A DNA stretch of 32,646 bases. It comes from a virus (lineage: Duplodnaviria; Heunggongvirae; Uroviricota; Caudoviricetes). The notes below the pieces were generated by a model. That model was not told the DNA's origin. It ran no database searches and saw only the letters and a program-made list of their open reading frames with translations. Positions 1 to 9,617 of this stretch are shown in pieces (position 1 is the first letter of the stretch; each line of letters starts with the position of its first letter). The position numbers and the translations under genes are program-made. The stretch covers positions 64,001 through 96,646 of IMG/VR virus record IMGVR_UViG_3300037400_002787, one strand, 5' to 3'.

Positions 1-7
1 TTCCGAG

Positions 8-3000
8 ATGCTTGCAAATCCCGAGGTTGTTAATACAGCGGCTGGCGAAATTCCGGTGCAGACCACCGTTCAGAAGGCTATAGTCGAAAATCTTGACCAG
101 CAGGCGGCACAGGGAAACCAGCAGGCCGGAGAGGCTCTAAGTGAACTCAAGGAGAATGTTGATGACGGGACAATTACTCAGGAAGCACATAATGTAGAGA
201 ATCCGTTGGTAGAGCAGCCGCAGCAGCCTGCAGATGTTCAGATGGCGAGTTCCGACGGCTCGTTTGTTCACACTTTGTCACCAGAAGAATCGGCGGTCAT
301 ACAGGCAAATCCAGAAAAGAGGGAAGTCCTGCAGCAGATAGTTGATGCCTCGGGCAAGTATGTCGATTCCACGGATGAAGCCGAAAAAGAGCAGATAGCC
401 GAAGGCATTAGGATGCTATATCAGATGTTCTATGGGGAAAAGAATCCGAAGAACGCATCGGGCGAAGAACCTAAGGAGAAAGAAACGGTAAAAGTTCTTG
501 AGTTCGAGGCAACCGATGATAAGGGTAACAAATCTACAGGAATCATAGAGGCGGATTCTAGGATAGATGCCATTAGAAAACTAATGAAGAAGGGTCTGAA
601 GCCAACCAATCTTAGCAATGAACCCTTTGATGTAAATAAGGACGATTTATCAACTTCAACACCACCACCGTCTCCACCCACACCGCCTACACCTCCCGAA
701 GGAGGAGGCGGAGAATCAGGCGGCCCAAACCCGCCAAACAATCCGCCTAACCCGCCAGACAACCCGCCGGATGAAGACGATGACGATAGCCGTAGTACAC
801 TGCCCCCCGCACCTTCCGACGAGGAATTCCGTGTTGGCGAGAACAAGTATAAGGTTGGCGGAATAACCTACACTGATGTGTCGGGCAAAGGTCTATTCCG
901 CACGGCCCTGGCTTCCTTTATGGCGGGTCTTCGCGGCGAGGGGGTTATTACTGGCTGGGATAGAATTAATGGCACATGGGATGCAATGAAGAGGTCTGAA
1001 AAAGGGGAGATGGTGCGAGATGGCATTGCTTCTGCCCTTTGCCGCGATACTATTGCAAATTATGCGAATAAGGACGGTTTGTCTGATGATGCAAAAATGG
1101 AGATAGCGGTCATTCAGGATATGATGAATCAGGCCGACACACCCGAAGCCCAAATGAAGGCAATAAAGCAATTCCAGAAATGGAAGGAGACTTACTCAAA
1201 GGAACTTGGCGAACTAGAAAAGCCAATCCCTGGACAGACATTCAAGCCGTTGCCTAACGATTATAAGGGAACAAAACCGCCGGTTTCTATCCTAAAGAAA
1301 TCGGAGGGATTTGAAGCGGACAAGGAGTTTGGAGACAAGGTGGCCGCTGGTCTGCAGGAACGGCTAGGGATTCTAGGATTTCAAATAGATGAACTTGTTG
1401 GAGTTAGTGTTGGTCCTTCTGCCACAACGGTAAAGTTCAAGATTCCGCCTACATTCGATATGACGGCGGCAAACAGCAAAAAGACCCGTGAAGCCCTTAA
1501 GGGAGCAATCGGCACGGAGGTGTCGAATGTGGAGTATGCCAAGGGCGAAAAGGATGTAATGTCGATAACCGTCACAAACCCAGAGATGCGTAATGTGTCC
1601 TTCTCGGATGTGATTAATAGTCAGAAGTGGAAAACCTTTGCAAAGAAAGCCGCGCTTCCAATCCCTGTTGGACGTGATTCCTCTGGCGAAGAAACAATGC
1701 TTGATGCTGCTACTATGCCGCAGACCATTGTAACCGGTGCTACGGGTTCCGGAAAGTCTGTCTTCATCTCCGCCGCTATAAACGGAATTGAAATGGAGAA
1801 GACCCCAGATGAAGCCCGTATAGTCCTTCTAGACCCAAAGAACGAATTTAAGATTCAGGACGGTTCTCCGCACCTACTCTTCCCAAGGGCTGGTGGAGAC
1901 CCCGACAAAGCCAAGGCTAGTAAGGATATGGCCGATGTTCTGGATTCCTTGGTTGCAATAATGAACGATAGGGTAACGAAGATAGGAGGCGTCATAGAGG
2001 GATTCAACCCGTCCAAGAACGAATTCAAGGGTGCCGCAGAACACTCAATCAAGCAGTATAATGAGGCTCACCCTGATGATAAGATGCCTCATATCCTCTT
2101 GGTGTTCGACGAAATAGCCAATGCCCGAGACAATGCAACAGCCGCAGACAAAGCCAGAATTGACGTCGCCCTACAGAAACTGACGGCTGTGGGCCGTTCT
2201 GTTGGCGTGAACTGTCTCCTTGCGACCCAGAGAGACGATGTTGGCTCTATCCCGGGAATCATTCAGGCTAACTGCCCAGGCCGCGTCACCTTCAAGGCTT
2301 CGCCAACCGATGCAAAGGCATCGCAGGAAGCCAAGGCGCTTGCCGGCAACGGAGACTACATTCTAACGGACAAAGCCGGGAACAAGACCCGCGGAAGAGG
2401 ATGTTTCATTTCGCCCGAAGAGGAAATGGCTATACCTTCCTACTACCGCGACCATATGGCTGGCGGTGATAATCCGGCAGAACCAACCCTTCCGAAGGAG
2501 TACACAGACGGTATAGTTCAGGCTGTAGAAAAGGGTGTAAACCTGTCTGTAGAGGCTATGGAAGGACTAGAGGATGCTTTCAAGGCGGCAGTCCCTAATG
2601 GGTGGACGGTAACTAAGGAGAAAGTTGACGGCAAGGAATATTGGAAAGCCTCCCCTCCAAAGCCTACTAGAGTTGATGTCAAGGAAGCAAAAAAGCCAGA
2701 GGCGGACAAAGCAAAGGGCGAAAAGCCAAAGGGACTTAACCTCAAGTCGAGACAAGAAGCCATTGAAAGCATCAAGGCGATGAAAGACGAAGCGATTTCA
2801 AAGGCTGATGCCGACTATGAGAAGGACGGAAATCTCGATAAATACGAGAAGGCGCTACAGAAGATAGGACAGGAAGAGCAGCGGCATATGGCTATCGTCA
2901 ACACTAGATTCCCCGAAATGATAGAAAACGGAGATGAGACGGATGATGACGAGGGGCAAGAGAATCCGTTGGAACAACCCGATGTGAGCAACACTGAATC

Positions 3001-3766
3001 ATCGGAAGACGATGGTGATACTCCCGCCGCTATGATGAAAGATGTTGAGGCACAACTCAAAGCAGAAAAAGAGCGCATAGACAAGGCTCTCTCAAAGCCG
3101 ACTCTCAAACTTAGGGATAGGCGCAAACTTAGGCAAGAAAAAGCCGCTCTACAGAAGAGATTCGACGATGCCAAGGCTAAGTTCAAGGCGGGCGGTACAG
3201 CAGACGAAATCCTGAACATCTTTGAGCCCGAGGAAAAAAAGGAAGAACCAGAGAAAATCGAGACCGCTCCGCAGTCTTCTGATGAAGATGTTCAGGTAGA
3301 TGCGGAAACCGTTGCCGCAAACGAGCAGGATGCGAAAAACGAGAAGTTGAGGAATTCTGTTCCGCCACAGAAGGGATATTCAGAGAAGACGATTGCAGGC
3401 TCTGCACCAGCGAAGAATAGGTTTGGGGTTATTTTCGTCAACGACCCCAAGACCGGTTCGCAGGGAAGGCTAATCCCCGACCCCAAGAATCCCAAGGGCT
3501 ACAAGTTCCAGAAGGACATCGACACCACGCACCCCGAATACAAGGGGTATATAAAGAAGCCCGATGGGACATGGGAACTGTCTCCTGAGGCCAAGAAGGT
3601 TGAAGAGGAGACGAGGCTAGACCGAAAGCAGTCAAGAGATGCGAAGAAAAGAGAAGAGGCACTAAAGCGGTTCAACAGGGCGAGGTTTGGCCACGACGAA
3701 GCTCCCGACAACAAGACAATCGTTGCCAATGCAGTGATGGAAGCACTTAAACTTGTGGAAGGATAG
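8..3766 (+). CDS. Giant acidic multidomain protein with FtsK/SpoIIIE motor (alpha + ATPase beta domains); may start upstream of the window
   Basis: FtsK-alpha-like segment (ERLGILG..VSVGPSATTVKFK..ITVTNPEMRNVSF, ~1340-1603), Walker A TGATGSGKS (~1733-1759), VLLDPK, Walker B LLVFDE (~2093-2113), GRSVGVNCLLATQR. Pro-rich and acidic linkers flank it. No transmembrane segment or gamma domain visible. Codons at 2-7 are sense, so the frame is open to the window edge. Confidence 0.85.
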   Translation: MLANPEVVNTAAGEIPVQTTVQKAIVENLDQQAAQGNQQAGEALSELKENVDDGTITQEAHNVENPLVEQPQQPADVQMASSDGSFVHTLSPEESAVIQANPEKREVLQQIVDASGKYVDSTDEAEKEQIAEGIRMLYQMFYGEKNPKNASGEEPKEKETVKVLEFEATDDKGNKSTGIIEADSRIDAIRKLMKKGLKPTNLSNEPFDVNKDDLSTSTPPPSPPTPPTPPEGGGGESGGPNPPNNPPNPPDNPPDEDDDDSRSTLPPAPSDEEFRVGENKYKVGGITYTDVSGKGLFRTALASFMAGLRGEGVITGWDRINGTWDAMKRSEKGEMVRDGIASALCRDTIANYANKDGLSDDAKMEIAVIQDMMNQADTPEAQMKAIKQFQKWKETYSKELGELEKPIPGQTFKPLPNDYKGTKPPVSILKKSEGFEADKEFGDKVAAGLQERLGILGFQIDELVGVSVGPSATTVKFKIPPTFDMTAANSKKTREALKGAIGTEVSNVEYAKGEKDVMSITVTNPEMRNVSFSDVINSQKWKTFAKKAALPIPVGRDSSGEETMLDAATMPQTIVTGATGSGKSVFISAAINGIEMEKTPDEARIVLLDPKNEFKIQDGSPHLLFPRAGGDPDKAKASKDMADVLDSLVAIMNDRVTKIGGVIEGFNPSKNEFKGAAEHSIKQYNEAHPDDKMPHILLVFDEIANARDNATAADKARIDVALQKLTAVGRSVGVNCLLATQRDDVGSIPGIIQANCPGRVTFKASPTDAKASQEAKALAGNGDYILTDKAGNKTRGRGCFISPEEEMAIPSYYRDHMAGGDNPAEPTLPKEYTDGIVQAVEKGVNLSVEAMEGLEDAFKAAVPNGWTVTKEKVDGKEYWKASPPKPTRVDVKEAKKPEADKAKGEKPKGLNLKSRQEAIESIKAMKDEAISKADADYEKDGNLDKYEKALQKIGQEEQRHMAIVNTRFPEMIENGDETDDDEGQENPLEQPDVSNTESSEDDGDTPAAMMKDVEAQLKAEKERIDKALSKPTLKLRDRRKLRQEKAALQKRFDDAKAKFKAGGTADEILNIFEPEEKKEEPEKIETAPQSSDEDVQVDAETVAANEQDAKNEKLRNSVPPQKGYSEKTIAGSAPAKNRFGVIFVNDPKTGSQGRLIPDPKNPKGYKFQKDIDTTHPEYKGYIKKPDGTWELSPEAKKVEEETRLDRKQSRDAKKREEALKRFNRARFGHDEAPDNKTIVANAVMEALKLVEG

Positions 3767-3771
3767 GAAAT

Positions 3772-4407
3772 ATGAACTTCTTTGATTTTCAAGAAAAGCT
3801 CTATAGCGGCAAGCCTGCAATGGACGATGCCGTTGGAGAAGCCGCCGCGCAGATAGCACGTCAAGACCAGCCGAAAGCACCTCATGGGCAGGAATCTTCC
3901 GCAAAGGTCATTGCGGAGTTTTCCGACAAAGACCACATACTCTCTGCGGAAGAACTCATTGAACACCGCAAGCACTGCCGCGCAAAGCCCGGAAACTGCC
4001 CTTTCGAAAAGGCGGTAGACGAGGCGGACGACATAACCCCCAATGAAATCAAGGTGACGAAGCAGGATGTGTTCAACCGACTTGCCGCCGTTCTCACACA
4101 GTTGTTCCAGGTGGCAAAGAACCTGGCAAAGCCCGCCATAGCAGAACCCGAAGCGGTAGAGGAGGCTTCCGCCCCAGCGGACAAACCACAAGCAACGACT
4201 TCTGATTCAATGCCGAAAACGGCACAGGACGAAGCCCCCGCACCCGATGAAACAAGCACTGATGCCAAGATAGTGGCGGAAATCATCGAGGGCGGAATCG
4301 AGAAGATGGTTGAATTGGCGAAGGGGAAAGGATGTATGGTTGATATGGACGAAAAGAACACCAAATACATCGTGAAAGGCCCCGACAAAGCAGAGCAGGA
4401 AGGGTAG
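3772..4407 (+). CDS. Hypothetical acidic protein, possibly an internal head protein
   Basis: Starts 5 nt after the previous stop with GGA upstream; contains HRKHCRAKPGNCPF and QDEAP motifs; lies directly before the protease gene. Confidence 0.7.
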   Translation: MNFFDFQEKLYSGKPAMDDAVGEAAAQIARQDQPKAPHGQESSAKVIAEFSDKDHILSAEELIEHRKHCRAKPGNCPFEKAVDEADDITPNEIKVTKQDVFNRLAAVLTQLFQVAKNLAKPAIAEPEAVEEASAPADKPQATTSDSMPKTAQDEAPAPDETSTDAKIVAEIIEGGIEKMVELAKGKGCMVDMDEKNTKYIVKGPDKAEQEG

Positions 4408-4471: not shown

Positions 4472-6445
4472 ATGGCATATAGTTTTATAGACAAGTTCGG
4501 ATATAGGAGACAGAGGGCTAACCCTATCTCCCGTGTCGGTGTCTTTCCATACACGGGAGAACAGATAGACCAGCCAAAGAAAGACCGCAACGGCAAGCCA
4601 ATCTTCAAGCGTGATGCGCTTGGCGAGATTATCTACAAGAGAAACAAGAAGACGGGAATGATAGAGGTCGACGACGATGGAGACCCGATTCCCGAATTCG
4701 AGATGCAGTTCGGTCTGGAACCTGAGAGACTCTATCCTGTCCTTCGTGGACCTGATGCCCTTTTCAACCCCGATGCCATAGATTCCTTCAACGGACTTCC
4801 AATAAGAGTTGGCCATCTGATGATAGGCGACGAGAAGCAGAACAAGAAGGACGAGAAGGACAAAAAGCTCAATTCGGCGGACAAGAATCCCAATGACGGC
4901 TGCATCTACAATGTCCGCCCGTCTATGGATGAGCCGGGGTATCTCATAGCCGACTTCTGCATCTACACCGACCGGATGAAGGACATTCTGAAGGATGGCA
5001 AGATTAAGGAACTCTCCCTCGGCTATACCTGCGTGTACGAGAATGAGAACGGAACATACGAGGGCGTTCCCTATATGTTCAAGCAGACCAATTTGCGGGG
5101 CAATCATCTTGCCCTCGTAAAGCACGGGCGTTGTGGGTCGAGCGTCTGTGTCTACGATTCAGCCGTAGTGACGTTCGACTCGCTGCCAGAAAGTCTGGTG
5201 GATAACCAAGAAAAGGAAACCCAAATGGAAAACCAAAAGAAAGAAGAGACCGGTAAGCTCGACAGAGCCAAGGCCCTTGCTTCCGCCATTAAGGGTGGTG
5301 ACGAGCAGCTAGCCCAGGACTGTCTGGACTTTGCGGATTTCCCACCGGAGGTTCGCAAGGAGGCTCTTGAGCGCTGCAAGGCGGGTAAGTGCGAGAAGAA
5401 GGACGGAGAGAAGGATGTGTCCGACAAGGCCCCCAAGGCCGCAAAGGACAATGCCGACGTTCCGCCAACTCCTCCAGACCTTCCGCCTGCCGAAGAGAAG
5501 AAGGAAGAGCCCAAGACGCCTGCGGAGTCCAATGCTCCTGCGGCTTCTACGGCTTCTGCCCCTGCTCCCGCCGCCACACCCGAGCCTAGTGATGCCCCTG
5601 CCGGTCAGGATGTTCCTTCTCCAAAGGAGGAAGCACCCGCAAAGGACTGCAAGGATAAGGCTCCGGTAGAGAAGCATGTCTGCGACAAGTGCGGCTGCGA
5701 TCCCTGCACATGCAAAAAGGAAGAAGCCGAGGCAAAGGACTGCGGAGACAAGGCTCCTAAGGAGACAAAGGACTGCGGTACTGGCGTGACTCAGCCCTCT
5801 ATTCCAACTCCTGTTGCCGCCGTTCAGGGTGGAACTGAGGAGAAGAAGGAAGAAAAGAAAGAGGATGTTCCGCCAGCCAAGGAGACTTCCGACAAAGCTC
5901 CCGAAAAGGTCGAGGTCAAGGTCGAGAAGGTTGAGGAGCCCAAGCCCGGCGAGGCGATTGCCGAAGCCATAGAGGGCAAGGAAACCTCCGACAAGAAGAC
6001 CGAGGACGGCGCTGAAAAGCGCATCACGGCCGATGTCAAGGCTGAGCACGACAATGTTCCTCCGGGCAAAACCGCCAAGGTTGCGCAGGACGAATATGCC
6101 GCTTTCGTTGCCGAATATGCCGAGGCACAGACTCTTGCCGGCAAGCTCCGCCCGTACATAAAGGAGACCTTCGATTCCGCTCCGATGCGAGTTATCGACG
6201 TTGCCCGCTTTGCGGCAAAGCACATCGAAACTCTCGCCTTCGTGATGGACGAGGCCGACGACGATAAAGTCCTTACGGCGGTCCGCGGCTATGCTGCAGC
6301 CGTTGCGATGGATGCGGCTCCGGAAAAGCAGGAAGTCCTTGTGGACACCCCGAAGCAGGGAGAGGTAATTGTTCAGGACGAGGCCCCGAAAGCCGAGACC
6401 AGAGTAGCGACCCCTCGTGATTTGATGGACTATATGTCCAAGTAA
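4472..6445 (+). CDS. DUF2213-like prohead protease fused to a low-complexity scaffold region
   Basis: N-terminal PISRVGVFPYTGEQI..PIRVGH..GKIKELSLGYTC..GNHLALVKHGRCG is typical of DUF2213 head proteins; long Ala/Pro/Glu/Lys-rich C-terminal half; precedes cement and capsid genes. Confidence 0.85.
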   Translation: MAYSFIDKFGYRRQRANPISRVGVFPYTGEQIDQPKKDRNGKPIFKRDALGEIIYKRNKKTGMIEVDDDGDPIPEFEMQFGLEPERLYPVLRGPDALFNPDAIDSFNGLPIRVGHLMIGDEKQNKKDEKDKKLNSADKNPNDGCIYNVRPSMDEPGYLIADFCIYTDRMKDILKDGKIKELSLGYTCVYENENGTYEGVPYMFKQTNLRGNHLALVKHGRCGSSVCVYDSAVVTFDSLPESLVDNQEKETQMENQKKEETGKLDRAKALASAIKGGDEQLAQDCLDFADFPPEVRKEALERCKAGKCEKKDGEKDVSDKAPKAAKDNADVPPTPPDLPPAEEKKEEPKTPAESNAPAASTASAPAPAATPEPSDAPAGQDVPSPKEEAPAKDCKDKAPVEKHVCDKCGCDPCTCKKEEAEAKDCGDKAPKETKDCGTGVTQPSIPTPVAAVQGGTEEKKEEKKEDVPPAKETSDKAPEKVEVKVEKVEEPKPGEAIAEAIEGKETSDKKTEDGAEKRITADVKAEHDNVPPGKTAKVAQDEYAAFVAEYAEAQTLAGKLRPYIKETFDSAPMRVIDVARFAAKHIETLAFVMDEADDDKVLTAVRGYAAAVAMDAAPEKQEVLVDTPKQGEVIVQDEAPKAETRVATPRDLMDYMSK

Positions 6446-6491: not shown

Positions 6492-7016
6492 ATGGGAGTT
6501 CAGAAAGAAATCCTTAGGCGGACGTTCACCGGCGAAGTTGAGCGCTACGAGGTGACGAAGGACGCTGAAGGTAAGCCTACTGGCACCGAACTCAAGAAGG
6601 TCCAGTATTCGGTCGGAAGCGCCGCCCTCGTTGGTGGTACTCCTGGCCAAATATACGACGTGGCATACGGCCCCGTCGTCCACACAACCAACCTCCCCGC
6701 GGCGGCCGACATCGGTTCGTTCGTGAAGGGACGCGGAATCATCATCAATGCCCCGGAGTATGCCCTCTACGGTACGCTTCCTAACGGCAAGGATGGTGGT
6801 CCTCTCGCTCCTTCGCTGACCCTCCCTGCCAACACCGTCGTTTCGGTGATGACGGCTGGTCATGTGTGGGTCAAACGTGGTGAACTGGCTGCCATTAAGG
6901 CAGGTATGAACACCTATGTCATCTACGAGCCTGAGGGCACTGATGCAAACGACCTCTGCGTTGTTGAAGTCAACGGCCTTCTGCCCGAAAGCGATGATTC
7001 CACGGCTAATGGCTAA
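6492..7016 (+). CDS. Putative capsid cement/decoration protein
   Basis: 174 aa, Gly/Val/Ala-rich beta-type protein between protease and major capsid; GGAG SD; strongly C-ending codons like the capsid gene. Confidence 0.65.
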   Translation: MGVQKEILRRTFTGEVERYEVTKDAEGKPTGTELKKVQYSVGSAALVGGTPGQIYDVAYGPVVHTTNLPAAADIGSFVKGRGIIINAPEYALYGTLPNGKDGGPLAPSLTLPANTVVSVMTAGHVWVKRGELAAIKAGMNTYVIYEPEGTDANDLCVVEVNGLLPESDDSTANG

Positions 7017-7044: not shown

Positions 7045-8139
7045 ATGGCTTTCACTGAATGCAAATTCCGTATGCCTAAGGTCAAGGTCGAGGGTTTCGC
7101 TCTCGATGAGGCCCCAGACAACCTCCGCACGATGGAGAACCTCGCTCTCATGGGCGTGTCCTTCAACGAGAAGTCCAGCGGAGTCAAGTACGTGATGGAC
7201 GCGATGCCTACTCAGGGCGTCACCAACCCAACCGCTACGGTCCCCGTGCAGTTCCTCCAGCACTGGATGAACAAGATTATCACGGTCGTGACCCAGGCTA
7301 CGACCGCCGATGAATTCCTCGGCCGCTCCACCTATGGTGAGTGGTATCAGGAGAGCATCGTCCTCCGTATCCGCGAGCTCACGGGCTCCGTCCGTCCTTA
7401 CGGCGACCATGCCCAGGCCCCTCTGGCACGGTACAACTACAACCAGGAAGACCGCACCATCGTCCGCTTCGCTCAGGGTATCCTCACGGGTGCTCTCGAA
7501 GAGGCTCGTCTTGCGGCCATCGGCCAGAAGTCTTCCGCTTACGAGTCTGACCGCGCGGCTCTCGGCCTCGCCTTCAAGCTCAATACGAATGCGGTTGCCT
7601 TCTTCGGCTACAACCTCGGTTACAACAAGACCTTCGGTATCCTCAACGATCCGAACCTTGCGCCTTATGTCGCTGTTCCCGAGAACAAGAACGGAGACAC
7701 GGAGTGGGCGAAGAAGAACTTCTACGAGATTGTCCGCGACCTCAACACGGCCGTCGCCGAACTCCAGAAGCAGTGCGCTGGTAACTTCATTCCGTCCAAG
7801 CATGCCTTCAAACTCGGCATCGCCCTCGGATGCGACCAGTTCCTCAACCAGGTCAACCAGTACGGCATCTCCGTCCGCAAGTACATCTCCGACACTTGGC
7901 CGAAGTGCGACCTCGTGGTTATCCCCGAGTTCGACAATGCTCTCGCCGGTGACAACGTTATGTACCTCAAACTCGACGAGCTCGCGGGTTCGCCGGTTGC
8001 GGAGCAGATCGTTCCTGCGGCGGTTCGCCTCGTTGGTTCGGTGCCGCGTGCAAGCGGTTTGTACGAGCTCTATTCGGATGCCACTGCCGGTTGCTTCGTG
8101 GAGCAGCCCCTCGGCGTGGTCCGTTTCTTTGGTATATAA
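7045..8139 (+). CDS. Major capsid protein (DUF2184-like, HK97 fold)
   Basis: 364 aa; NAVAFFGY..TFGILNDPNL..EWAKKNFYEIVRDL..SDATAGCFVEQPLGVVRFFGI typical of this family; AGGAG SD; strongest codon bias in the window; followed by a terminator. Confidence 0.9.
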   Translation: MAFTECKFRMPKVKVEGFALDEAPDNLRTMENLALMGVSFNEKSSGVKYVMDAMPTQGVTNPTATVPVQFLQHWMNKIITVVTQATTADEFLGRSTYGEWYQESIVLRIRELTGSVRPYGDHAQAPLARYNYNQEDRTIVRFAQGILTGALEEARLAAIGQKSSAYESDRAALGLAFKLNTNAVAFFGYNLGYNKTFGILNDPNLAPYVAVPENKNGDTEWAKKNFYEIVRDLNTAVAELQKQCAGNFIPSKHAFKLGIALGCDQFLNQVNQYGISVRKYISDTWPKCDLVVIPEFDNALAGDNVMYLKLDELAGSPVAEQIVPAAVRLVGSVPRASGLYELYSDATAGCFVEQPLGVVRFFGI

Positions 8140-8163: not shown

Positions 8164-8200
8164 AAACAACCCTCTACTTTTTAGTAGGGGGTTTGTTTTT
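8164..8200 (+). terminator. Rho-independent terminator after the capsid gene
   Basis: AACCCTCTACT-TTTT-AGTAGGGGGTT hairpin followed by TGTTTTTT. Confidence 0.8.
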
Positions 8201-8263: not shown

Positions 8264-9535
8264 ATGTATAGAGGTATAAAAGTTAGGATATATCCGACCA
8301 AGGAACAAGAGGTTTACATTAATAAACTCTTGGGAAGTTGTCGATTTATCTATAACAAGTTCATAGATTTCTTCAATGATTTTTATAAAGAACATAGGAG
8401 GGGTGCATCTAGTAGAGAAGCATATCAATTTTATAAAAGGTTAAAAGAAGAATATGGTTTCTTAATGGAAGTCCATAGTAAGGTAATAAGTAATGAGAGA
8501 TTGATAGCTATACAAGCATGGGGGAACTTTTTCAAGGCGAAAAAGAAGCCTCCAAAAAAGAATGGTAAGTTGAATTTTGAAAAACCAGTATATCATATCA
8601 AGCATAGACATGATTCGTGTCTCTTTGATAAACAAGCATTTAGATATATTAAAGGTGATAGGATTTCATTAATCAAGAAACTATCTAATATTCTCTTTAG
8701 ATGCTCTAAACGAGATGCGAAATTCCTACGAGAAAATAATGAGAGTGTTCGTAGTGTAACTTTAAGGAGAACACCGAGTGGAAAATATATATGTTCAATA
8801 CTTGTAGAAGATACAAGAGAGATTAGAATGTCTCATAGTTCAAAAGAGATAGGTATTGATTTGGGAGTAAAGCATTTTGCAACATTGTCTGACGGAACTA
8901 AAATAGAGAATCCGAGGATAATCAAATCTTATATAGGAAAGATAAAAAGATTAGATAGAAAGTTGTCGAAATGCAAAAGACACTCTAGAAGATGGGAAAA
9001 GGCACGGATGCGATTAGCCAAAGCCTATGAAAAACTTAGTAATTGCAGGAAAGATTTCCATCATAAAGTATCATCTAAGTTAGTTAAAGAGTATGGAACG
9101 ATATGCATAGAGAATCTAGATGTAGCATACCTTTTAACCATCTGTGATGCAAATAAGGATGTAGCCGATGTAACTATGGCAGATTTCTTATATATGATAC
9201 GATACAAATGCGGGTGGTATGGAAGGTTACTAGGTGTAGTTGATAGGTTCTTCCCATCATCAAAGACATGTAATCATTGCGGAAATATAAATCGTGACTT
9301 AACCTTGGTAGAAAGAGAGTGGGTGTGTCCTAAATGTGGTAAACTTCTTGATAGAGATTTGAATGCTGCCATTAACATATTGAAGGATGGGAAAAAGCAT
9401 TTGGTAGGGCCGGGCTCGCCCGAACCGAACGCTCGTGGACAGGAGTGCATCAGAGACGATTGCCCGAAAGGGAAAGCGGAGGAGATGTCCTGGGCGAAGC
9501 GAGAAAAGAATGTGGAAGTGAACTTGTGTCACTAG
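8264..9535 (+). CDS. tnpB: IS200/IS605-family RNA-guided endonuclease TnpB
   Basis: N-terminal HTH (KVRIYPTKEQ..GSCRFIYN), RuvC-I GIDLGVKHFA, RuvC-II CIENL, Zn ribbon CNHCG..CPKCG, RuvC-III DRDLNAAINI; all three catalytic acidic residues present. Confidence 0.95.
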   Translation: MYRGIKVRIYPTKEQEVYINKLLGSCRFIYNKFIDFFNDFYKEHRRGASSREAYQFYKRLKEEYGFLMEVHSKVISNERLIAIQAWGNFFKAKKKPPKKNGKLNFEKPVYHIKHRHDSCLFDKQAFRYIKGDRISLIKKLSNILFRCSKRDAKFLRENNESVRSVTLRRTPSGKYICSILVEDTREIRMSHSSKEIGIDLGVKHFATLSDGTKIENPRIIKSYIGKIKRLDRKLSKCKRHSRRWEKARMRLAKAYEKLSNCRKDFHHKVSSKLVKEYGTICIENLDVAYLLTICDANKDVADVTMADFLYMIRYKCGWYGRLLGVVDRFFPSSKTCNHCGNINRDLTLVEREWVCPKCGKLLDRDLNAAINILKDGKKHLVGPGSPEPNARGQECIRDDCPKGKAEEMSWAKREKNVEVNLCH

Positions 9536-9583: not shown

Positions 9584-9617
9584 AACCCCACTTGCATGAG
9601 TGGGGTTTTATTTTTTT
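9584..9617 (+). terminator. Rho-independent terminator after tnpB
   Basis: AACCCCACTT-GCAT-GAGTGGGGTT hairpin followed by TTATTTTTTT. Confidence 0.85.

Follow-up and report, generated by a model that had tools for sequence, protein, structure and literature searches.

We studied a 32,646-nucleotide stretch of DNA (hereafter, the window) that corresponds to positions 64001-96646 of a 96.6-kb viral contig in IMG/VR (IMGVR_UViG_3300037400_002787, Caudoviricetes). The first gene of the window encodes most of a 1,407-amino-acid protein with an FtsK-type DNA-translocase motor, which we call the giant, and it is followed by the genes for a prohead protease, a cement protein, and the major capsid protein of the phage. 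We found that the predicted motor is complete, that both ends of the giant carry motifs that also occur in the capsid protein and the protease, and that its N-terminal leader is common to enzymes of the polyvalent type. Together, these observations suggest that the giant may be a cargo of the phage head, a reading that we regard as evenly balanced against its alternatives. All coordinates are window positions unless marked as contig or L002 positions, where L002 is the stretch of the parent contig that holds the 5' end of the gene (L002:13543 is contig 63543). The features of the giant and of the head operon described below lie on the plus strand.

The gene and its motor

An open frame fills positions 2-3766 of the window, and its 5' end is cut off by the window edge. 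In the parent contig, the full frame spans L002:13519-17766. The true start, which a preliminary description of the window had placed upstream of it, was recovered there as an ATG at L002:13543, 458 nt before the window begins; this ATG is conserved among the relatives and is preceded by the ribosome-binding site AGAGGAA. The full gene thus corresponds to contig 63543-67766, of which the window holds the 3' 89% (positions 1-3766), and the missing first 458 nt encode the N-terminal leader. The product has a calculated mass of 153 kDa and a pI of 4.95. The CheckV completeness of the parent contig is 38%, implying a genome of roughly 250 kb. The single full-length match among sequencing runs was a bovine gut metagenome DNA run, which may be the source of the contig; no RNA run carrying the DNA of the giant was found among the sequencing runs listed.

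The giant matched the Pfam family FtsK_SpoIIIE (PF01580) with an E-value of 4.8e-20 and the FtsK/SpoIIIE-like PHROGs phrog_1358 (2.5e-39) and phrog_3551 (1.4e-27). A profile built from 29 relatives aligned with Pseudomonas aeruginosa FtsK (2IUU/2IUT, chain residues 67-464) at an E-value of about 1e-69 (6.6e-70), and the 2IUU alignment spanned both the alpha and beta domains, from the PPxSLL motif that opens alpha to the end of beta. In the ranking of this profile against the PDB, true FtsK chains stood above EccC, coupling proteins (TcpA-like), and HerA. The alpha domain corresponds to positions 1265-1612, with the alignment to 2IUU starting at residue 67, and the beta domain, a RecA-like ATPase, to positions 1613-2434, in which we located Walker A (1736-1759), Walker B (2108-2113), and the ATQR motif (2222-2233). 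In an alignment of 29-32 relatives, G740, G745, K746, and S747 of Walker A, D864 and E865 of Walker B, and Q904 of ATQR were invariant, and T903 of ATQR was nearly so. Judged by this conservation, the FtsK alpha and beta motor of the giant is intact and under selection. Its identity to the motors of cellular FtsK homologues is only 27-31%.

The highest Kyte-Doolittle mean over any 19 residues of the giant was 1.08, and the protein therefore has no transmembrane helix. The 4TM domain PF13491, usual in the cellular FtsK proteins of the same search, is absent from the giant. Likewise, the FtsK_gamma domain (PF09397), carried by every cellular FtsK retrieved in that search, gave no match on the giant up to an E-value of 1 and none in about 33 relatives. 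Without the gamma domain, the motor lacks sequence-guided orientation. The preliminary description had reported an FtsK alpha-like segment and a complete ATPase domain lacking both a membrane anchor and a gamma domain, and the profile searches bore this out in full; only its span for the motor (about 1340-2430) had to be extended slightly, to about 1265-2434.

The head operon and the packaging machinery

Downstream of the giant, we found in order a gene for a conserved 211-amino-acid protein (3772-4407), a gene for a 657-amino-acid protein resembling DUF2213 proteins and gp24 of phage Pa193 (4472-6445, with the DUF2213 domain at 4472-5206), a cement or decoration protein gene (6492-7016), and a PB1/E217-like major capsid protein gene (7045-8139). 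A terminator-like hairpin at 8168-8193, the first strong one downstream of the sliding clamp gene discussed below, is the probable end of the operon. Beyond the capsid gene lie a TnpB insertion and then the adaptor, gateway, sheath, and tube genes. The order giant, 211-amino-acid protein (not always present), protease-scaffold, cement, and capsid was found at eight loci: that of the window, those of five relatives, and those of two deeper lineages, one divergent, in which the giant gene directly abuts the protease gene, and the other a 42.6-kb integrase-bearing contig. The head-gene neighbourhood in the preliminary description thus holds; in this phage, however, the gene does not lie directly upstream of the protease gene, as had been stated, since the 211-amino-acid gene stands between them, and the protein is longer than the window shows.

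In PB1-like phages, the positions corresponding to the giant gene are occupied by the portal gene and a MuF-like head-morphogenesis gene. In a complete relative of 251.8 kb, we found an 816-amino-acid large terminase subunit (TerL) at 143 kb (phrog_3717, 3.5e-38; phrog_2, 3.8e-32) and a portal protein (PF06381, 1.2e-51) at 190 kb. A search for Phage_Mu_F gave only a sub-threshold match, far from the head operon. The possibility that the giant is the sole packaging ATPase was ruled out by the presence of TerL and the portal elsewhere in the complete relative. This clade therefore packages its DNA by the normal terminase-portal system, with which the motor had correctly been contrasted beforehand, and the FtsK protein is something extra.

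The 211-amino-acid protein carries both types of motif described in the next section (AMDDA near the N-terminus, and QDEAP), a knuckle-like EHRKHC...C segment, and a weak match to TM1506/DUF1893. Its tail (IVAE..E....MVE) resembles the C-terminal tail of the giant, and it could be a co-cargo or a loading adaptor. The TnpB (IS605 OrfB) gene at 8264-9535 occupies a low-GC island (0.36 versus about 0.5) that separates the terminator of the capsid gene from the next head gene and is flanked by the strong hairpins at 8168-8193 and 9584-9607. In the complete relative, TnpB copies are found elsewhere, for example between the clamp gene and the gene for a 153-amino-acid protein. In the relative G001 (IMGVR_UViG_3300028888_001839), a 202-amino-acid ORF downstream of the capsid gene (L010:14673-15281) is 46% identical to capsid residues 199-290 and may be a fragment or partial duplicate of the capsid gene left by insertion.

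Motifs shared with the capsid protein and the protease

When all six frames of the 96.6-kb contig were scanned, the pattern D[EA][AM]P (as a pentapeptide, x-D-[E/A]-[A/M]-P) appeared 10 times. Four adjacent proteins of the head operon account for seven copies (two each in the giant, the protease-scaffold, and the capsid protein, and one in the 211-amino-acid protein), and the other three are in non-coding frames. In the 101 plus-strand ORFs of at least 100 amino acids, the seven observed copies compare with a mean of 1.26 after shuffling. The giant has AMDAMP near its N-terminus and DEAPDN (3695-3712) 22 residues from its end, the latter followed by a conserved, amphipathic 17-residue tail; we propose that this C-terminal segment (3695-3763) comprises a protease site and a docking tail. 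Both copies in the protease-scaffold, AMDAAP (MDAAP at 6308-6322) and QDEAP (DEAP at 6377-6388), lie within its last 45 residues. Those of the capsid protein are LDEAPDN at residue 21 (DEAPDN at 7105-7122) and VMDAMP at residue 50 (7192-7209).

Among 46 representatives of the giant family, the motif was N-terminal in 32 and C-terminal in 37, with only five interior copies in about 63,000 residues. The codons of the motif vary synonymously within and between genomes, indicating that selection acts on the peptide; a DNA-level repeat is ruled out by the same variation. The terminal site also differs among lineages and matches within each. In this contig, DEAP is found in both the giant and the protease. 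In L034, the giant has SAEDGI at the N-terminus and IAEDNG 31 residues from the end, and the protease has VAEDTN 28 residues from the end. In the 42.6-kb contig, the giant has IADAAL and the protease AQDAAI. This comparison is suggestive of covariation between the site in the giant and that in the protease.

The VMDA of the capsid protein falls exactly on AMDS (residues 62-65) of phage LBL3 in the alignment, and VMDAMP marks the point where homology to the visible Pa193 and E217 capsid protein begins. By cryo-EM, the capsid proteins of Pa193 and E217 were modelled from residue 66 onward, and the authors of the E217 study suggested that the first 65 residues may be cleaved (PMC11456595, PMC10329688).

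In G001, a gene cluster at 121728-133618 encodes proteins of 1,178 and 1,480 amino acids without a family match, an ADP-ribosylglycohydrolase, and a metallophosphoesterase that bears the leader described below. In the 1,178-amino-acid protein, DEAP and AMDAGP occur near residues 333 and 372, respectively, and make it another candidate protease substrate or cargo.

The prohead protease

The N-terminal 245 residues of the DUF2213 protein were modelled from an alignment of 39 sequences (pLDDT 78). The Foldseek matches of the model consisted of herpesvirus assemblins and T4 gp21. Superposition gave Z 9.2 and rmsd 2.9 over 131 aligned residues with T4 gp21, and Z 8.0 and rmsd 2.6 over 108 residues with varicella-zoster virus (VZV) assemblin. 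Three residues, H115, S182, and H212, do not vary; they are 67 and 30 residues apart, a spacing that we take to be typical of the His/Ser/His triad of assemblins. On the strength of the model, the DUF2213 protein is predicted to be a protease of the assemblin/T4 gp21 fold fused to a scaffold. In most of the homologues listed (down to 36% identity, including that of LBL3), a [Q/A/G/L]-D-[E/S/A]-A site is found 20-25 residues before the C-terminus and is followed by a conserved tail. The M-site of the herpesvirus scaffold has the same layout, and assemblin releases the capsid-binding tail there. Pa193 gp24, a member of the same family, has been described as a putative scaffold; its family bears the label of head maturation protease in PHROGs, and gp24 itself probably combines protease and scaffold as well. 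The middle of the protease-scaffold (within 4472-6445) contains a conserved Cys cluster (C..C...C.C) in long linkers rich in Pro, Lys, and Glu.

An N-terminal leader common to polyvalent-type enzymes

The N-terminus of the giant consists of the motif-bearing peptide followed by a short His/His/Cys "knuckle". We found this leader again at two other places: inside the 655-amino-acid protein encoded upstream of the giant, just before its ART-PolyVal domain, and, in the complete relative, at the N-terminal end of a metallophosphoesterase. The latter two copies are 45% identical over 67 residues (E-value 7e-11). The 655-amino-acid protein (L002:11542-13509, or contig 61542-63509) is an in-frame fusion, whose first approximately 110 residues correspond to the 153-amino-acid protein of the relatives; it thus joins this helical, acidic-tailed protein to a cargo leader and an ART-PolyVal ADP-ribosyltransferase. 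In the relative L030, a separate gene for a leader-plus-ART protein (729 amino acids) is placed between the gene of the 153-amino-acid type and the giant gene.

A search of 1.84 billion representative proteins with a profile of the leader gave 107 matches, 78 of them in proteins without the motor; the knuckle is mostly found among the first 80 residues of these. The domains found in these 78 proteins were ART-PolyVal (17), MuF_C (4), metallophosphoesterase (4), Macro (2), LPD23 (2), LPD3 (2), and zeta toxin (2). Judged from these domain assignments, the set of partners of the leader is the domain repertoire of polyvalent proteins, which Iyer, Burroughs, Anand, de Souza and Aravind (2017) predicted to be packed in phage heads and injected into the host (PMC5512222).

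Distribution of the giant family

The giant belongs to a family of about 33 clusters at 90% identity, with proteins of 1,280-1,966 amino acids built on the same plan, on contigs of up to 276 kb; at 50% identity, the plan is common to about 46 representatives. Conservation peaks in the N-terminal peptide of about 20 residues, the pre-motor domain, the motor, and the last approximately 25 residues. A 1,212-amino-acid version from an NCBI assembly sits in the 42.6-kb integrase-bearing contig, and thus the family is not confined to giant genomes. Its presence in a small temperate element speaks against a function that only very large genomes would need, and weakens part of the rationale of the preliminary description.

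All relatives are from uncultured phages. A megablast search with the giant gene against deposited phage genomes gave no match. In tblastn searches against cultured phages, the giant gave matches to the motor only, the leader gave no match at an E-value of 0.01 or better, and no match to the pre-motor domain or the tail was found among the matches listed. In IMG/VR, a search with the single giant protein gave no related loci, whereas an alignment-based search gave four.

Other parts of the giant

The most conserved part of the giant is not the motor but a pre-motor domain at 806-1198, with 28 invariant columns. A model of this domain (pLDDT 69) predicted a small beta sheet and a helical bundle. 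No fold match was found for it by a PDB profile search or by Foldseek against the PDB and AFDB clusters, and a VIA-wide structure search gave only generic helical-bundle matches with Z below 8. It is preceded by a flexible linker rich in Pro and acidic residues (671-808) and, further upstream, by a small GspF/PilC-N-like insert (494-613). Judged by alignment columns, the insert is present in only 3 of 32 family members, the same three that carry a precomputed PF28597 label; it is therefore a lineage-specific insert and not part of the core. The motor is followed by a long C-terminal linker region that is acidic, Lys-rich, and partly coiled-coil (2546-3388), and then by a small beta-rich domain (3404-3583), for which the fold search gave only a weak WW-like match. 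The linkers as a whole contain acidic, Gln-rich, and Pro-rich stretches, so that the acidic and Pro-rich linkers noted at the outset are real. The FtsK motor is the only recognisable catalytic domain of the giant, and the pre-motor and C-terminal domains matched no assignable fold.

In the relatives, a WW-like LPxGWE segment stands before the C-terminal beta-rich domain; it is deleted in this phage (near position 3404). The relatives with this segment also have Pro-rich linkers, and intra- or intermolecular WW-proline contacts are conceivable.

The giant as a possible head cargo

We propose that the giant is a head cargo of the polyvalent type, that is, an injected effector, whose payload would be a complete FtsK alpha/beta dsDNA translocase devoid of gamma domain and anchor; on the present comparison of sequences, we give this proposal about an even chance of being correct. 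The preliminary description had suggested a capsid-packaged and ejected protein, and its idea of packaging is supported in part and indirectly, by the placement of the gene in the head operon, by the terminal motifs that the giant has in common with the capsid protein and the protease, and by the polyvalent-type leader.

The proposed course of events is as follows. The giant would be made together with the head proteins from one operon, and its N-terminal leader of about 20 residues and its 17-residue C-terminal tail would bring it into the assembling prohead. Leader and tail are each bounded by x-D-[E/A]-[A/M]-P, a pattern also present in the presumed capsid propeptide and at the C-terminus of the protease-scaffold, and the assemblin-type prohead protease would trim both ends of the giant at these points. 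Since the 150-kDa body contains no internal sites, the giant would be trimmed and not fragmented, and would stay whole, trapped in the capsid. A body of 150 kDa can leave a closed capsid only through the portal and the tail; thus, if loaded, the giant is either ejected or stays behind. By analogy with T4 Alt and the T4 internal proteins, P1 DarB, and polyvalent proteins, it may exit through the tail with the DNA at infection. In the cytoplasm, the giant might then form a ring on dsDNA, translocate at the expense of host ATP, and reel in or clear the incoming phage genome, which is the speculative part of the proposal. The free DNA end that enters the cell would be an easy substrate for the loading of a ring.

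Comparison with known systems

Like the bacterial FtsK/SpoIIIE motor (P. aeruginosa FtsK; 2IUU, 2IUT, and 6T8B), the giant has full-length alpha and beta domains, Walker A and B, ATQR, and the conserved Arg that follows it. Unlike bacterial FtsK, it has neither the N-terminal membrane domain nor the gamma domain, the winged helix that reads KOPS; about 570 residues precede its motor and about 440 follow it, among them the orphan pre-motor domain, and it is encoded in a phage head operon. The FtsK/SpoIIIE-like proteins of phages (phrog_1358 and phrog_3551; Bacillus phages Bc431v3, Deep Blue, and JBP901) have a motor of the same family, but they match the giant only in the motor (about residues 510-1054), with 24-31% identity.

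In T4, the internal proteins IPI-III and Alt carry an N-terminal capsid-targeting sequence that is removed by the gp21 prohead protease. The giant likewise has a short conserved N-terminal peptide ending in an acidic residue and then Ala, the DUF2213 protease has the gp21 fold, and the neighbouring cargo is an ADP-ribosyltransferase, as is Alt (also summarised in PMC5512222). The giant differs from these proteins in its motif and in having a second site and a tail at the C-terminus, more like the M-site of the herpesvirus scaffold; moreover, the proposed cargo is a predicted ring translocase of 150 kDa. The head of phage P1 carries DarB, a methyltransferase-helicase of 2,255 amino acids, which is injected. 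Like DarB, the giant would be a very large nucleic-acid-dependent ATPase that is carried in the head and works on the DNA entering the cell. DarB, however, consists of an SF2 helicase and a methylase and depends on DarA and Hdf for loading, whereas the giant is predicted to be a hexameric FtsK-type pump with terminal tags resembling protease sites.

DarB was used as a seed in the survey of polyvalent proteins (PMC5512222). Like polyvalent proteins, the giant is very large, is encoded among virion genes, and has a leader common to ART-PolyVal, MuF_C, LPD3, LPD23, Macro, and zeta-toxin proteins. In that survey, FtsK was represented only by its winged helix, a rare DNA-binding module; the giant has the ATPase motor instead. 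As it has a single recognisable catalytic domain, the giant is 'polyvalent' by association and not by the possession of many enzymes.

Alternative explanations

Several points weigh against a head-cargo role. Proteases do not usually cut just before or near proline. In the Pa193 and E217 capsid protein, the first 65 residues may simply be disordered and not cleaved, and the covariation of the terminal sites covers only three lineages. The packaging of polyvalent proteins is itself largely a computational prediction (PMC5512222). DNA import would need an anchor for the ring, and we identified none; an anchorless ring translocase alone cannot import DNA. In addition, the genes upstream of the giant are those of replication. 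The gene for the DNA polymerase III beta clamp lies at L002:10214-11407 and that for DnaB helicase further upstream, and in this respect the non-structural upstream module that the preliminary description had thought would speak against a virion protein is half present. The clamp gene stands one to three genes upstream of the giant gene in every lineage examined, including the 42.6-kb integrase-bearing contig (it was also observed as a conserved upstream neighbour in L006, L008, and L030), and a replication-linked role fits this conserved adjacency. A sigma-70-like promoter (11/12 match, with an extended -10) precedes the clamp gene, and there is no strong terminator between it and the end of the capsid gene; thus, membership in the operon cannot separate a cargo role from a replication role.

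These upstream genes argue for a DNA translocase that would work in the cytoplasm with the sliding clamp and the helicase and never enter the virion, an explanation that we consider possible but on the unlikely side. Its task might be the resolution or segregation of replicated concatemers, the removal of proteins from DNA, or the delivery of DNA to the terminase, and the shared motifs would have a different function, for instance in regulated turnover by the phage protease or in docking to a common partner outside the capsid. The FtsK/SpoIIIE-like proteins of Bacillus and Mycobacterium phages are, among the records listed, not annotated as structural, in agreement with this idea. However, a cytoplasmic role leaves unexplained why the motifs are confined to the termini and match the capsid propeptide and the C-terminal site of the protease, why they covary with the protease site, and why the leader is common to ART-PolyVal, MuF_C, and LPD proteins; furthermore, a simple pattern search found no clamp-binding-like motif in the giant. 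It is also conceivable, although we doubt it, that the head-cargo protein goes further than clearing DNA: the trimmed body, ejected ahead of or with the DNA, would form a hexamer on the entering end, be held at the entry channel by its linkers and terminal domains, and pump the genome in with host ATP.

The evidence for loading applies equally to an assembly factor that would be loaded and trimmed, act inside the prohead in morphogenesis only (for example, by gripping or organising the first DNA end inside the shell, or by serving in the core), and then stay behind or be inert after ejection. The gene occupies the PB1-like position of the portal and MuF-like genes, and Pa193 virions contain unassigned products of the genes between portal and scaffold. 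Nevertheless, ATPase residues conserved this strictly speak for work driven by ATP, of which a sealed capsid has no supply, and a leader common to host-directed enzymes (ART, Macro, and zeta toxin) suggests that the protein acts in the host cell; we consider an assembly factor unlikely, slightly more so than an import pump. That last point would also suit an ejected effector aimed at host DNA, which could strip nucleoid proteins, disrupt replication or segregation, or block the FtsK-dependent resolution of the host chromosome. Such an effector could be blind to orientation, as expected of a motor whose missing gamma domain deprives it of sequence-guided directionality, and the other leader-bearing proteins are host-modifying enzymes. 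Nothing in the sequence, however, indicates a preference for host DNA, and the low identity of the motor to its cellular homologues noted above speaks against this explanation, which we regard as improbable.

Implications

To our knowledge, tailed phages do not use pumps of the FtsK/HerA type, and membrane-containing viruses use them only for packaging. Delivery from the head together with the DNA is undescribed for an FtsK motor. If our proposal is correct, a ring DNA translocase carried in the head would represent a new class of injected protein and would be a candidate answer to the question of how the last part of the genome enters the cell once the capsid pressure drops. If it acts as an import pump, it would be an FtsK/SpoIIIE-style DNA import motor inside the capsid of a tailed phage. 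As by-products, our analysis provides a candidate recognition motif for the widespread DUF2213 prohead protease (PB1/E217/Pa193-type), evidence that the DUF2213 "scaffold" is a protease-scaffold fusion with the assemblin fold, and a hitherto unnamed N-terminal leader by which diverse candidate cargo enzymes of uncultured phages can be recognised.

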